Below are positions 26,921-61,110 of a DNA stretch of 64,000 nucleotides, piece after piece. The stretch is from positions 256,001 to 320,000 of the forward strand of contig JABHQW010000008.1 of the NCBI GenBank assembly GCA_018696595.1, written 5' to 3'. Position 1 is the stretch's first letter; each line of letters opens with the position of its first letter. Made by a program: the position numbers and the translations under genes. This DNA is from Candidatus Woesearchaeota archaeon. GTDB taxonomy: Archaea; Nanobdellota; Nanobdellia; Woesearchaeales; GW2011-AR9. The notes beneath the pieces are model-generated. The model saw only the letters and a program-made list of their open reading frames with translations. It made no database searches and was not told where the DNA came from.

Positions 26921-28012
26921 TCAAAATTCTAGGAGTATTTTTTTATTCTTCAAATCAATCCCTTTGATCTTCTTAACTTTTTTCAACTCGCTTTCAATCT
27001 CTTTCCAATCTTTACCTTCTTTTCTTGCAGATTTAACAAAATCAATAATCTTTTGTAAGGGTTGGTAGTTCTCATAAACAGTCTCTCCCTTTTGGGTATT
27101 TAATACAATCTTATCTTCTTGTTTCTTAATCGATTTTTTCTGGTTAGAAATTATTCCTTTAGCCGAAATTATTCTTTGTTCATAGGGAGATATAATCTCA
27201 AACGGATTAAGAATATTGATTGCTTCATTATACGTTTCAGTTTTCTTTACTACTTTCTCCTCATTAGTTAATTCAAAAGGGGTTATCTGATTTTCATAAA
27301 TAAATCCAGAAGGTTTCTCAATAACTTTCAATAATGTTTTAATCCCTTTAATAATTTCTTTAATCTCTTTTTCAGTAACATCATTTTGTAATTTGTCTTT
27401 ATCAACATCAGCTAATCTACAAATCTCTTCTGCATATAATCCACCAAATCCCACTTCTGTAGCAATTGAAGTAGCCAAATTCTTTTTATCACTCTTTTTC
27501 AAAACAGTAGTTAACTCTTTCTCATTCAACTTTTTCCAATCAATTCCTGGCGTAGGAAAAACATACTTCTCTTTCACTCTGATATTACGATCTTTCCATT
27601 TCTTTTGTTCAAGGGCAGCAATAATCATATCTTTAGAGTCAGTCAAAATCAAATTTCCACGAGAGAACAATTCAATAATTAGATAATACTTCTCCTTTTT
27701 TTCAATTTCAAAAACAATAATTCTTTCAGCGCCTTTTTGTTCAATCTTTCTAATAGAAGCGTTATCCAAATATTTCCTTAATTGCATACAGAATGAAGAT
27801 GGTTTTAGGGGGGTATCTTTCCGCGAAGTCAAACAAAGAAATTTTCCAGGAACAATTTTCAATAATTGTTTGCCTTCGCCTTTAGCATGTAACTGAAATA
27901 ATAGCTCCATCTTTTCCTGGTGGTAAACTTGCGATATTCTTCCATCTACTAAGAACTGTAATTCGTTAATAATCGCTGCTAGTTCAAGTGAAGCTAATCC
28001 TTTTTTGTTCAT
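26921..28012 (-). CDS. NFACT/Rqc2 (FbpA) N-terminal domain protein, lacks NFACT-R
   Basis: PSSFCMQLRKYL, ERII, IIELFSRGNLILTD, GFGGLYAEEI (HhH); only 363 aa. Confidence 0.85.
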   Translation of the reverse strand: MNKKGLASLELAAIINELQFLVDGRISQVYHQEKMELLFQLHAKGEGKQLLKIVPGKFLCLTSRKDTPLKPSSFCMQLRKYLDNASIRKIEQKGAERIIVFEIEKKEKYYLIIELFSRGNLILTDSKDMIIAALEQKKWKDRNIRVKEKYVFPTPGIDWKKLNEKELTTVLKKSDKKNLATSIATEVGFGGLYAEEICRLADVDKDKLQNDVTEKEIKEIIKGIKTLLKVIEKPSGFIYENQITPFELTNEEKVVKKTETYNEAINILNPFEIISPYEQRIISAKGIISNQKKSIKKQEDKIVLNTQKGETVYENYQPLQKIIDFVKSARKEGKDWKEIESELKKVKKIKGIDLKNKKILLEF

Positions 28013-28058: not shown

Positions 28059-28232
28059 CTTCATCCAGAATAATAACATTTTGTATACTGCCTGCAATAG
28101 GCGCATTTTTGGAGTAGGGCACGGCACCTTAGATTTTACTCATAAAATTCGTAAAATGTGCCTCCATTGGCGCCACTCCAAAAATCCACGCGCCGGCACG
28201 CAGTATACAAATTCATTTTATTCTAGATGAAG
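28059..28232 (-). ncRNA. 174-nt nested hairpin carrying the GC-CAAUGGA-GGCAC/GUGCC-GU-GC motif
   Basis: Arms CTTCATCCAGAATAA/TTATTCTAGATGAAG, TTTGTATACTGC/GCAGTATACAAA, TTTTTGGAGT/ACTCCAAAAA, GGCAC/GTGCC; mismatches are G.U on minus. Confidence 0.6.
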
Positions 28233-28243
28233 TTCTTTTCTAT

Positions 28244-30865
28244 CTATTCAATCTCAAATCGAAGTATAGCAGCAATGCCGCCTAAATCTCTAAGTTGTGC
28301 CCCTTCTCTAGTTTCTGTAGAAATAATCCTAACTTCTGCACCACCTGCTTGTGCCTTCTCTTCCAAATCAAAAATCTTATTTTCAGGAATACTCTCTGAA
28401 ATTAGTAAAATGTCAACTGCGGCCATTTCTAAAGCTTTCAATGTTTCTTTCTCCCCATAAGTTGCTTTTTTGGGCGTATCTCTAAGAGTGCCTAAGAATT
28501 GTTGCATAATTTTTTTCTCGTGAGCAATTTCTTCTTCTGATAAAAGGTCTTCAGATTTTTCTAATAATTCTTGCAATCCAAAATCTCCGGTATACGATAA
28601 ATCTTTAGTACCAATAATTTTTTTCTTTACATCTCCAGTAATATAATCTTTATTCATAAAATCGTTAATCGTAACACCGGGGCCACCAATAATAATGCCT
28701 TTCAAATCTTTTCCAAGAGGTAAGAATTGATCTTTCATATATTCTGCAATTTTTTTAAAATGATCTTTAGCAGCACCTTCTCTTAGACGAGCGAATCTTT
28801 GAGCAGAATTATGAACTATTAATCCATTTGCTATGAAGTTTTGATTGCCAACAGAAATGTCAATCATTTCAGTTTCTTCATTTCTTTTTTCAATATTAGC
28901 AATCTTAACCGGCAAAATGGGGCTATTATAAACTTCTTCTAATTGTGTATATAATTTCTTATCTTTAACACAAGACAAGATAGAACTCTTAAATGTTTGT
29001 TTACTCATCATTCTCTCATTTCTAAAGAAGTTTGTTACTTTTGGAAATTGGTTTGTGTTGTAACCAGCGTTTTCAATTATCTTTCTGATTTTCGAACCAG
29101 AAGCAATAATTTGTCTGACATTACTCTTATTTGATCTTAAATCAATACTCTTTTCTAATTTTTGTGATTTTTTATTACAAGTAAATCCAATTTGTTCTTT
29201 AAATAATTCTAAAGATTTCTTTTCTGTAATGTCAATTGTAAAGCGAGGATTATCACTTAGTGGATTTCTTCTATTGTCATATTCATGTAAAGAAGAAATG
29301 ATTCCAAATCTTAACAAAGCCATTTGTATTTGTTGTGCCAATATTTTGTTATTTATTCCAAATGCAGCCTGTTTTCTTTGAGAAACATAACCTTCTGCAT
29401 CAAAAAATCCTTTCACAAAACTTGCAAGAATTTTATTTGGAGAATTTAATATTTTTTCGGGAATTAAAGAATCTCTTGCTTTTTTTATTTCTGGAAATTC
29501 TGTTTGAATTAATCTAACTAATGGTCTACTTGTAAATCTTAACTGGTGGTAATTCTTACTTTCTCTAAATTTATAACTACAATTCAGATCAAAGTGTTGA
29601 TCAAACAATTCTTTATAATGTAAAGCAAGATCTTTACTTTGTTCAAAGAAAGTAATTCTATCTTTTTCTATACAACCATCACCCATTAGATAACCTAAAA
29701 ATTGAGCGAGATTTGCTTCAAGAAGAACCGGCAATTTGATGTTTTTGTATAGTTCAGGAGTAGTATAGTTATTTAGGAAATCATAAAAATCAATTTCTAA
29801 GGCCGCACAAAGCTTTTGCAAAGGAATTCTTCCAATATTTCTTTTTCCTTTTTCGTAAGTTGATATTGCTGTTTGGGTAAGCCCAGTAAGTTTTGCAACA
29901 TCTCTCTGAAATAAACTTTTTTCTTCTCGTTTTCTCTTGATTTGGTTTTGTCCTTCTTTATTTATTTTGAAAGAATTATAATATTGAACTGCTTTGATGG
30001 TTTGAAGTTTACCTTCTACTTCTATTTTTTCAGGCATAATTAGAAAATCTCCTTCTTGAAGTTCTTCAGCGGCTTTTTCTTTGATTCCATTCTCAGTTTT
30101 CACAAAGAAAATATGGTCTTTAGAAGATTCTACTTGTAGTCTTGGATATTTTGTTGTGATCTTGTAAACTTCATGTTTTTTGGCATTCCATTTATCTGTA
30201 ATTGGTGAATCTTTAATTGAGTGACTTTCCATAACCATACTCTTGAGCACAATTGGGTTATGGGAATTTTCAATTTTTAAGATGTCTCCCTGAGTGGATT
30301 GAATTAATGTTCCTTTCATACAACATTGTCCACCTGCTTTAGTTTTTCCAGGAACTTCCGAATGTGTTTTTTGCATTGGGACAATAGATTTTCCTTTCAA
30401 CAGAGCAATGGTTGCATCCCTTCTATCCATAACAACAAGACCATAAACTTCTTTGTTAACCATCATTTCTTCTAATAAATCAGTTACAAAGTTTTTATCA
30501 CAACGATAAATACGTGTGTTTAATTGGATTGGTGGTTCAATACTCCAAACTCGAACATCTTGTTTACCTTCTCCTGCGGCAACGTTTCCAGAAAAAACCG
30601 CAAAACCATTTTCTGGTGTGTTACCAATAGTTCTTAAATGTTGAATCATTTTTTCCAAAGCATTCTGGACATTCTTTCTAGTAGCAGCAGATTTAATGTT
30701 TGAAGCGGTTCCTTGCTCTTCTGCTAGATGTTGAATAATTTTTGTCATATCATAACCAGAAGGGATGTAAACTGTAACAAACTCTGTATGTGGAGCCTTA
30801 TGGCTACGTAACTCACTTACTATTTTTTTCAGTTTCAGTTTCTCTTGTGCGGTTATCGCTGCCAT
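28244..30865 (-). CDS. prf1: Peptide chain release factor aRF1 containing an intein
   Basis: TASNIKS, YRCD, GKTKAGGQ|intein|SAQRFARLRE, GGAEVRIISTETREGAQL; spliced length 367 aa. Confidence 0.95.
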   Translation of the reverse strand: MAAITAQEKLKLKKIVSELRSHKAPHTEFVTVYIPSGYDMTKIIQHLAEEQGTASNIKSAATRKNVQNALEKMIQHLRTIGNTPENGFAVFSGNVAAGEGKQDVRVWSIEPPIQLNTRIYRCDKNFVTDLLEEMMVNKEVYGLVVMDRRDATIALLKGKSIVPMQKTHSEVPGKTKAGGQCCMKGTLIQSTQGDILKIENSHNPIVLKSMVMESHSIKDSPITDKWNAKKHEVYKITTKYPRLQVESSKDHIFFVKTENGIKEKAAEELQEGDFLIMPEKIEVEGKLQTIKAVQYYNSFKINKEGQNQIKRKREEKSLFQRDVAKLTGLTQTAISTYEKGKRNIGRIPLQKLCAALEIDFYDFLNNYTTPELYKNIKLPVLLEANLAQFLGYLMGDGCIEKDRITFFEQSKDLALHYKELFDQHFDLNCSYKFRESKNYHQLRFTSRPLVRLIQTEFPEIKKARDSLIPEKILNSPNKILASFVKGFFDAEGYVSQRKQAAFGINNKILAQQIQMALLRFGIISSLHEYDNRRNPLSDNPRFTIDITEKKSLELFKEQIGFTCNKKSQKLEKSIDLRSNKSNVRQIIASGSKIRKIIENAGYNTNQFPKVTNFFRNERMMSKQTFKSSILSCVKDKKLYTQLEEVYNSPILPVKIANIEKRNEETEMIDISVGNQNFIANGLIVHNSAQRFARLREGAAKDHFKKIAEYMKDQFLPLGKDLKGIIIGGPGVTINDFMNKDYITGDVKKKIIGTKDLSYTGDFGLQELLEKSEDLLSEEEIAHEKKIMQQFLGTLRDTPKKATYGEKETLKALEMAAVDILLISESIPENKIFDLEEKAQAGGAEVRIISTETREGAQLRDLGGIAAILRFEIE
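28808..30325 (-). mobile_element. Intein (506 aa) with HTH insert and LAGLIDADG homing endonuclease
   Basis: Block A CCMKGT, block B SKDH, FLGYLMGDG and FVKGFFDAEG, block F MIDISV..QNFIANG, terminal HN followed by Ser+1. Confidence 0.93.
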
Positions 30866-30889: not shown

Positions 30890-31366
30890 TTATAAGAATT
30901 TTGCAATCTTTTTAATTAACTCTCCCTTGCCAAACCTTTTACCAGTATCAATCGTAATAATCTTGTGTTTTCTTTCTTTAGATTCATTTAAACAGATTTG
31001 AAAAATCTCTGCATCTAAGTTCTCACGAACCTTTTTCTTAGAATATTTTCTGTCTTGCAATCTTTTCTCAAGTTTTTTCAAATCAGAACAAGTTAAAACA
31101 ATACATAAATCTACTTTCTTCAACAAATGAGAAATGTGAGAATCAACAATAAGATTCTCTCCTTTAGACTTCTCTTTAACTAACTTCTCCAACTTTTTCA
31201 AATCAATGTCATAACATTGTTTACTTCTATCGTAACCAGTAGAAATTTGTTTGTAATAATGGTGTAAGTCTAATCTAGCAAATTTTAACTTTTTCTCTAA
31301 GTATTTCGTAAGTGTGGATTTGCCAGTACCAGGCGTTCCAGTGATTGCAATAACTTTCATAGACAT
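30890..31366 (-). CDS. Atypical adenylate kinase AK6/Fap7 family
   Basis: ITGTPGTGKS, IVDSH, RLQDRKYSKKKVRENLDAE. Confidence 0.88.
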   Translation of the reverse strand: MSMKVIAITGTPGTGKSTLTKYLEKKLKFARLDLHHYYKQISTGYDRSKQCYDIDLKKLEKLVKEKSKGENLIVDSHISHLLKKVDLCIVLTCSDLKKLEKRLQDRKYSKKKVRENLDAEIFQICLNESKERKHKIITIDTGKRFGKGELIKKIAKFL

Positions 31367-60054: not shown

Positions 60055-61110
60055 CTACCACTCTAATTTGTAACGTAGAATTGCGGCAATTCCCCCTAGG
60101 CCGTCTAACTTTTGCCCGGTTTCTTGTTTAGAAGAAAGAATGTTAATTTGTCCTTTTAGTACATCAATCTGTTTCATCAACTTGTCTAGTTCTATGTAAT
60201 GGCCTTCTTCTCTCTTTTGTTGAATGAAATCATCTGTTAACAATAATTTACTAACCGCTCCTGCATCAATTGCTTTTTTTACTTCTCCCCAAGCATATAC
60301 TGCCAGTCCATTTTTGTTGATTTCGCTTAACAGTTCATCCATTAATATTTTTTCTGTTCTTGCCCTAGAAGATTGTAATGTTTTTTCTAATTCTTTACTT
60401 CCTAACACTTCGTCAATAGATCTTTCACTAACATCAGAACAATTAACCAAAACTATTTTCTTTTTTACTTCTGGATCAGAAATTTTCTTTAACAAATTTT
60501 CTTTCCAAAAAGCAGGAGAGGCAAGAATTATTTTTTCTGGCAAATGCCTTTCATTGTAAGTATTAATTGTTTTAATAATTTCTTGTTGAAAATCTGTTTT
60601 GATTTCTACGGTCTTGGCTTTTTTAGGAACGTCACCTTTTATTTTTAGAATAACTTGGTAGCCAAACTTTTTAGTTAATGCAAACAATGATTCCTCCCGG
60701 TCAAAAATTATAATTAAGAAATTATGTTTCTTTTGAGCAGATTCTTCCAACTTTTGTTTTTGAAATTCCATCCAGCCAACTTTTTCTAAAACAAATTCGC
60801 TACCTTCCTCTAAAGGAATTGCTTGATAACTATCTTTTGGAACTTCCTCTGGCCCTTCCTTAATTTTACCGTTAACTCTTAAAATGTCTCCCGACTGATC
60901 AAAATCTATGGTTTCTGCTTCGATTTTTAAGAAATAAGTTTTTTTAACAGTTTTAGCATTATCTCCATCACCAATTTTAATTTTTCTAGTAGTTTTCCCT
61001 TTAACAAAATCTCCCGGATCAATCAAATGGCTTAGGTACCATAAGTCTTCAGGATCTGTTATTCTTAGTTTTACGTCTCCTTTCTTAAAATCTGCATGGA
61101 TTATGTTCAT
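60055..61110 (-). CDS. pelA: Pelota (Dom34) ribosome rescue factor
   Basis: DPEDLWYLSHLI, LASPAFWK, GAVSKLL, KLDGLGGIAAILRY. Confidence 0.95.
   Translation of the reverse strand: MNIIHADFKKGDVKLRITDPEDLWYLSHLIDPGDFVKGKTTRKIKIGDGDNAKTVKKTYFLKIEAETIDFDQSGDILRVNGKIKEGPEEVPKDSYQAIPLEEGSEFVLEKVGWMEFQKQKLEESAQKKHNFLIIIFDREESLFALTKKFGYQVILKIKGDVPKKAKTVEIKTDFQQEIIKTINTYNERHLPEKIILASPAFWKENLLKKISDPEVKKKIVLVNCSDVSERSIDEVLGSKELEKTLQSSRARTEKILMDELLSEINKNGLAVYAWGEVKKAIDAGAVSKLLLTDDFIQQKREEGHYIELDKLMKQIDVLKGQINILSSKQETGQKLDGLGGIAAILRYKLEW

Follow-up and report, generated by a model that had tools for sequence, protein, structure and literature searches.

The window analysed here, a 64,000-nucleotide stretch of contig JABHQW010000008.1 (positions 256,001 to 320,000) from the Candidatus Woesearchaeota archaeon assembly GCA_018696595.1, contains on its minus strand a gene for the archaeal release factor aRF1 that is interrupted by an intein immediately after the codons for the catalytic GGQ motif. 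The open reading frame (ORF) at 28244–30865, taken from the ORF list and its translation, encodes 873 amino acids, and its identity as aRF1 follows from the presence of three eRF1 domains, of the NIKS and GGQ motifs, and of a match to the NCBIfam aRF1 equivalog model TIGR03676 (387.8 bits) that exceeds the curated cut-off of 234.7. In Pfam, the same frame matches eRF1_1, eRF1_2 and eRF1_3 along with Intein_splicing, HTH_3 and two stretches of LAGLIDADG_3, and the NCBIfam model for the C-termini of inteins, TIGR01443 (intein_Cterm), also matches it. We consider it highly probable that the insert is a selfish class-1 intein with a homing endonuclease, that the cell cannot do without its splicing, and that its allele family continues to move among DPANN archaea. 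The parts of the gene are as follows.

28244–30865, minus strand: aRF1 precursor, 873 amino acids plus stop codon, the only aRF1 gene of the genome (ORF, TIGR03676)
30326–30865, minus strand: N-extein, residues 1–180, with domain 1 (NIKS at 30689–30700) and the first part of domain 2, ending in GGQ (30326–30334)
28808–30325, minus strand: intein, 506 amino acids, precursor residues 181–686
30323–30325, 30113–30124 and 28808–28813, minus strand: key intein residues, namely Cys1, block B (S-K-D-H) and the terminal His-Asn, respectively
29996–30325, minus strand: N-terminal half of the Hint fold, intein residues 1–110 (mini-inteins, described below, retain residues 1 to ~104)
29768–29983, minus strand: accessory helix-turn-helix (HTH) domain of the XRE/Cro-C1 type, precursor residues 295–366 (HTH_3)
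29066–29728, minus strand: two-motif LAGLIDADG homing endonuclease domain, with motif 1 (FLGYLMGDG) at 29675–29701 and motif 2 (KGFFDAEG) at 29390–29413
28808–28918, minus strand: the remaining, C-terminal part of the Hint fold, comprising blocks F and G with VHN as its last residues (TIGR01443)
28805–28807, minus strand: +1 Ser codon, TCT, the first of the C-extein
28244–28807, minus strand: C-extein, residues 687–873 plus stop codon, with the rest of domain 2 and domain 3

The interval 28808–30325 translates to exactly 506 amino acids, from CCMKG to LIVHN, and is flanked by KTKAGGQ upstream and SAQRF downstream. Both junctions are exact, because the 57 intein-free orthologues from the same family run unbroken through the site with the sequence KAGGQ-SA.RF (for instance, KAGGQ SAQRFARLREG). 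An earlier interpretation made from the letters of the window alone (the sequence-only reading) had placed the intein precisely between GGQ and Ser, with this Ser as the +1 nucleophile, and that placement agrees to the base with the coordinates and with the contiguous empty orthologues. Removal of the insert as an intron, at the RNA level, was set aside, given that the insert is in frame and has all the motifs of protein splicing.

The source genome (1.19 Mb in 8 contigs, 97% complete) contains one aRF1 gene. A second eRF1-like match, with 51 bits over positions 118–318 of the aRF1 model, lies in a 366-amino-acid frame at ~60214–60768 (minus strand) of the window and is presumably pelota. The GGQ loop of eRF1 and aRF1 has to reach the peptidyl-transferase center of the ribosome. 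Since a 506-residue insert at the tip of domain 2 would block this reach, the unspliced precursor is probably inactive and splicing would therefore be obligatory; because the nearly complete genome has a single aRF1, translation termination appears to depend on splicing, as the sequence-only reading had proposed. Autocatalytic splicing is predicted as well, from the fact that a single-copy essential gene hosts the element. No RNA dataset is listed among the sequencing runs that hold the allele. Among the contigs, none has a joint that skips exactly 28808–30325 in the same strain, although contigs cannot prove the absence of such a joint. The aRF1 intein is the only one detected in the genome; three free-standing LAGLIDADG_3 ORFs of ~200–240 amino acids are found outside the window (G000:C1:36224-36445, C2:56648-56881 and C3:151847-152077), none of them within an intein.

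Conservation of the splicing and endonuclease residues was assessed in an alignment of 113 full-length aRF1 intein alleles, 111 of which have inteins of 500–510 amino acids. Cys1 (Cys181 of the precursor, codon TGT), Ser248, His251, His685, Asn686 and the +1 Ser687 are invariant in all 113. The first Cys of the Cys pair is intein residue 1, whereas at the second position 72 alleles have Leu and only 16 have Cys. The C-terminal junction, VHN|S, fits the requirement of class-1 inteins for His-Asn followed by Ser, Thr or Cys, and block B reads S-K-D-H, a conservative variant of the usual T-x-x-H with Ser in place of Thr. In the endonuclease domain, where Pfam PF14528 matches twice and two LAGLIDADG helices are confirmed, the acidic residues are retained at D396 (112 of 113 alleles), at D489 (all) and at position 491 (Glu or Asp in all), which bears out the earlier view that both LAGLIDADG motifs are intact.

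An AlphaFold model of the intein built on this alignment has a pLDDT of 94 and a pTM of 0.92, and its best structural matches are archaeal inteins that carry endonucleases: TliVMA (PDB, 7qss; Z 36.4, with 389 residues aligned at a root-mean-square deviation (rmsd) of 2.9 Å), PI-TkoII (2cw7; Z 33.8) and PI-PfuI (1dq3; Z 30.9), with PI-SceI (1vde) at Z 23.7. When taken by itself, the Hint part superimposes on mini-inteins (Ssp DnaB, Npu DnaB and others) with Z of 20–22 and rmsd of 1.3–1.6 Å over ~135 residues. By sequence, the intein matches TliVMA with an E-value of 2e-15, and NCBIfam PRK14845 gives a partial match. Like the aRF1 intein, TliVMA and PhoVMA (7qss, 7qst; PMC8966425) are archaeal class-1 inteins in which a Hint N-terminal half is followed by an accessory domain, the LAGLIDADG domain and the Hint C-terminal half; however, their host is the ATPase A subunit of Thermococcales, whereas the element described here interrupts aRF1 at GGQ|S in mesophilic marine DPANN archaea. 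PI-PfuI, PI-TkoII and PI-SceI likewise combine splicing with a homing endonuclease, two LAGLIDADG motifs and an additional DNA-contacting region, a combination that the aRF1 intein is predicted to share. They differ from it in their hosts, which are replication, nucleotide-metabolism or V-ATPase proteins, and in the fold or position of their accessory regions, the stirrup, domain IV and the DNA recognition region (DRR).

The HTH domain, which the sequence-only reading did not include, follows the N-terminal half of the Hint fold and precedes the endonuclease; a 2022 structural study of VMA inteins (PMC8966425) refers to this position as that of the accessory domain. The HTH matches HTH_3 (PF01381) at 1.5e-9 with 38–39 bits, against a cut-off of 23, and in the predicted model the XRE/Cro-C1 domain comprises five helices at intein residues 123–187. 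Among proteins of solved structure, those closest to it in sequence are the restriction-modification controllers C.BclI (3e-8) and C.AhdI. One allele, P0105, lacks exactly residues 295–366. Alleles from other orders match the window intein only from about residue 195 and have frames of ~790–800 amino acids, which suggests that they lack the module as well. On account of P0105 and of these apparently HTH-less alleles, we regard the HTH as a separable module. It is not a new kind of feature, because HTH-like accessory domains have already been described in archaeal VMA inteins: in the 2022 study (PMC8966425), those of TliVMA and PI-TkoII are reported to be HTH-like, to contact DNA and to affect cleavage. 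It is, rather, a clear example of a known feature, differing in being a full XRE/Cro-C1 domain (Pfam HTH_3, C.BclI-like), whereas the TliVMA domain is described as HTH-like. By analogy with the latter, the HTH of the aRF1 intein would contact DNA beside the homing site.

A search of 5.8 billion proteins yielded 710 matches among proteins of 480–1528 amino acids, and nearly all of the top 120 are ~870 amino acids long, have the same architecture and come from Woesearchaeota or Nanoarchaeota assemblies. Clustering at 50% adds aRF1 alleles in which an HTH-bearing intein occupies the same site, down to ~30% intein identity, some of which belong, by the names of their sources, to Micrarchaeota and Nanohaloarchaea. 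Orthologous inteins are present in ~20 of 301 sampled genomes of the order (order-level matches in G210, G112, G183 and G245 are weak and non-orthologous, and support no claim) and, at the level of the phylum, in 38 of the 401 genomes sampled, 15 of these coming from other orders of the same class. The rarity implied by the sequence-only reading is thus not borne out: hundreds of alleles are in public databases, already labeled 'eRF1/intein/homing endonuclease' by the JGI pipeline, while NCBI names most of them 'helix-turn-helix domain-containing protein' and others 'LAGLIDADG family homing endonuclease' or 'hypothetical protein'. Two proteins, P0171 (1187 amino acids) and P0200 (1452 amino acids), contain two aRF1 inteins each, the GGQ intein with its HTH and another in domain 1, around residues 110–130, so that aRF1 has a second site of insertion. 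A dCMP/cytidine deaminase and a metallo-β-lactamase-fold protein (P0188, P0199) are likewise split by inteins built in this way, HTH included, and related inteins without an HTH are found in MCM, RadA and DHH-family proteins.

The distribution of the intein was examined at closer range using the complete aRF1 genes from 70 species genomes of the family to which the window genome belongs. The gene is empty in 57 of these, carries a full intein of 505–509 amino acids in nine, and in four carries a mini-intein of 133–151 amino acids that consists of the Hint halves only, with neither HTH nor endonuclease, and exists in at least two forms. An additional allele beyond the 70 (L068, G358:C56:432-3095) has an intein of full length whose frame shifts once, near intein residue 432, and contains two Ns; decay of this essential gene and an error of assembly are equally likely explanations. 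Three genera include both occupied and empty species (G000/G549, G321/G410 and G508/G432). The aRF1 of the same-genus genome G549 is empty, has TCC as its Ser codon at the site and has 89% extein identity to that of the window, which implies that the intein was recently gained or lost. On the extein tree each full intein is a singleton, and the 12 changes of state equal the mean of shuffled data (12.0), so that the presence of the intein is scattered at random over the tree. Furthermore, the same seawater samples hold intein-free GGQ|S alleles of relatives, one of them sequenced ~25 times as deeply as this strain (with loose ends at 28801 and 30327).

Comparison of the intein and extein sequences across the 113 alleles reveals only a loose correspondence between the two: their distances correlate with r = 0.41 and the nearest neighbor is the same for both in 31 alleles. 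Several pairs of alleles have near-identical inteins inside very different exteins, and P0022, P0024, P0025, P0073 and P0102 are among the alleles that form close intein pairs. In the case of P0022 and P0073, the inteins are 91% identical and the exteins 57%, with identity rising at residue 181 and falling at residue 687. Discordance that steps at the junctions is the signature of horizontal transfer by homing, and, on this sequence evidence, such transfer has taken place within the allele family.

On the basis of these data, we propose that the aRF1 gene would be translated as an 873-residue precursor, from which the Hint fold, using Cys1, the block B His, the terminal His-Asn and the +1 Ser, would excise the 506-residue intein and join Gln180 to Ser687, restoring the normal GGQ-S sequence of aRF1 in a reaction that is probably fast and constitutive as well as obligatory. 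The excised intein would act as a site-specific DNA endonuclease, its LAGLIDADG core aided by the XRE-type HTH, that cuts intein-free aRF1 alleles at the sequence coding for GGQ|S, after which the intein would be copied in during repair with an occupied allele as template. Across DPANN archaea, the element behaves as selfish mobile DNA that goes through a homing cycle of invasion, loss of the endonuclease (giving mini-inteins), loss of the intein and re-invasion.

Several observations weigh against this proposal or limit its reach. The block B Ser departs from the Thr of most inteins. Splicing and endonuclease activity in this genome are predictions drawn from intact motifs, and the target of the endonuclease and the role of the HTH are predicted as well. 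The clear transfers lie in other members of the allele family and not in the lineage of the window genome; within the family, the divergence of the nine full inteins follows that of their exteins (rho 0.79), with the intein always the more diverged, a pattern that also fits long vertical descent accompanied by many precise losses. The best match found for the intein of the window is 69% identical, and no near-identical donor was found; family intein pairs for which DNA was at hand are at most 71% identical, at which level synonymous sites would be saturated. Composition says little about a foreign origin, because the difference in G+C content at third codon positions is small: 0.19 in the intein and 0.15 in its endonuclease domain, compared to 0.21–0.22 in the exteins and 0.23 ± 0.03 in the long ORFs of the window. 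For the lineage of the window genome, ancient descent followed by numerous losses and exchange between close relatives are both compatible with the data. The suggestion of the sequence-only reading that the element may still home is accordingly supported for the allele family, by scattered presence and intein/extein discordance.

The same divergence pattern, together with the lack of a near-identical donor, could also mean that the intein is an immobile relic here, one that splices but whose endonuclease no longer cuts, and that persists since imprecise loss would kill aRF1; inactive endonucleases with an intact-looking fold are indeed known, as in the PhoVMA intein (PMC8966425). We nevertheless find such a state very unlikely, given that the window intein has all the catalytic and structural invariants of the family, that the inteins of 111 of the 113 alleles show no decay in length, that the empty same-genus genome implies recent gain or loss and that other members of the allele family give clear signs of recent transfer. 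An artefact, either from chimeric assembly or in the form of a pseudogene whose product is not a working aRF1, might be suspected since the genome is metagenome-assembled and the related G358 allele is frameshifted. This explanation is effectively excluded by an uninterrupted frame of 873 codons, by more than 110 homologous full-length alleles, by the status of the gene as the only aRF1 of a 97%-complete genome, and by independent assembly in the runs of other studies: in a 2850-nucleotide contig from a different seawater metagenome study the gene is complete and shows 4 differences, and both intein junctions are bridged, with 0 differences, by contigs from another sequencing run.

A further alternative is domestication, in which conditional splicing (in response to redox state, metals or temperature) would gate termination, as the sequence-only reading envisaged in calling the intein a possible conditional control point, or in which the excised protein, with its HTH and LAGLIDADG domains, would double as a DNA-binding regulator in the manner of WhiA. 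Such a role would suit an element placed in the catalytic loop of an essential factor that is encoded only once, and there are archaeal inteins known to splice conditionally, for instance that of RadA (through references cited in PMC4760082). The XRE-type HTH is retained even in alleles of ~30% identity from other DPANN phyla, and the intein is strongly conserved, with a mean pairwise identity over the 113 alleles of 57%, compared to 62% for the exteins and 60% for the endonuclease domain, although such conservation is to be expected of any endonuclease that keeps homing. WhiA (3hyi), which combines a LAGLIDADG fold with an HTH, is among the structural matches of the endonuclease domain. The match is weak, however, and WhiA is a free-standing bacterial transcription factor with a C-terminal HTH, no Hint domain and lost catalytic residues, while in the aRF1 intein the catalytic acidic residues are kept, which argues against a WhiA-type domestication. 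A regulatory role is also difficult to reconcile with the random presence of the intein on the extein tree, with its absence from most species of the family, including the same-genus genome, and with the persistence of mini-inteins and HTH-less alleles; moreover, no conserved Cys partner for Cys1 was seen: Cys at position 2 is confined to a minority of alleles and the +1 residue is Ser. Conserved Cys residues do occur in the interior of the intein. Because most close relatives are empty, reduced forms persist, the endonuclease retains its catalytic residues and a conserved sensor is not apparent, we regard domestication as very improbable, and the idea of a control point finds no support.

The codon of the +1 Ser provides a possible trace of the interaction between the endonuclease and its hosts. 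The two serine codon families, TCN and AGY, are unconnected. Within the family, all 13 occupied genes use TCN, whereas the empty ones are divided between 31 TCN and 26 AGY (Fisher p = 0.0013), and the extein tree requires 23 changes of codon family at this position, as opposed to two to five for six other conserved Ser codons of the gene; the figure of 23 is in line with the saturated counts of one-step switches at invariant Arg columns (7–22) and Leu columns (14–24). Phylogenetically independent pairs agree in direction with the association of occupancy and TCN (~3.4 one way and none the other), but they number only six, too few to confirm it, with a median sign-test p of ~0.25. An additional 39 occupied alleles from other families and orders comprise 31 with TCN and 8 with AGY. 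Six of these eight belong to divergent lineages that match only from about residue 195 and have frames ~70–80 amino acids shorter, which suggests that they lack the HTH. This may point to separate lineages of the endonuclease, each fitted to one codon family. Because the protein sequence KAGGQ|SA.RF cannot change, a jump between TCN and AGY, which would rewrite two to three bases at the center of the target and thereby allow escape from the endonuclease, would be the main way out for the host. An arms race at the DNA level over a single codon that is invariant at the amino acid level is a possible though doubtful interpretation; the pattern could reflect either host escape by synonymous jumps or intense local recombination at the homing site, and is a lead, not an established result.

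In the surroundings of the gene, the downstream neighbor of aRF1 (26921–28012, minus strand) encodes a 363-residue NFACT_N protein, similar to RqcH/Rqc2 of ribosome quality control and apparently containing the N-terminal and middle domains only, and the upstream neighbor (30890–31366, minus strand) encodes a small kinase of 158 residues of the AAA_18 family; with aRF1, these genes form a translation-related neighborhood. A GC-rich hairpin element at 28082–28209, just 3' of the aRF1 stop codon, varies between samples: contigs of two runs skip either 28111–28179, with 8 other letters in its place, or 28106–28192. The sequencing depth at the element is 20–60 times that of the aRF1 gene, and these features fit a repeated, mobile element.

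The kind of element described here, a Hint fold with an HTH-like accessory domain and a LAGLIDADG endonuclease, is known, but the host protein and the insertion site appear undescribed in the literature searched, which yielded no paper describing an aRF1 or eRF1 intein (a result that covers that library only). This agrees with the sequence-only reading, to which no characterized aRF1 intein was known. A paper on the Bodo saltans virus was considered as a possible earlier report and set aside, the inteins described there being in polymerases. The main text of a 2015 survey (PMC4760082) states that inteins are few in core translation proteins and leaves release factors unmentioned. The euryarchaeal aIF2/IF-2 inteins given in the same survey (PMC4760082) are the known case of an archaeal translation factor as host, and the partial match to PRK14845 is a further likeness, but they interrupt the P-loop region of an initiation GTPase instead of the GGQ|S site of a release factor.

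The aRF1 intein adds a translation termination factor, split at its catalytic GGQ, to the known hosts of inteins, most of which are replication and repair proteins. As NCBI names such proteins after their HTH or LAGLIDADG domains, aRF1 can appear to be missing from DPANN gene inventories; no dedicated model for an aRF1 intein was among the NCBIfam matches, whereas several other intein-containing proteins have one. The predicted splicing at a Gln/Ser junction in a mesophile could be practically useful, and the frequent switching of the +1 Ser codon makes it possible to test cheaply how a host can escape from a homing endonuclease when its protein sequence is frozen. With empty, full and mini states present in a single family, and even within genera, and with occupied and empty alleles side by side in the same seawater samples, aRF1 is well suited to studies of the homing cycle in uncultivated archaea whose genomes are tiny.

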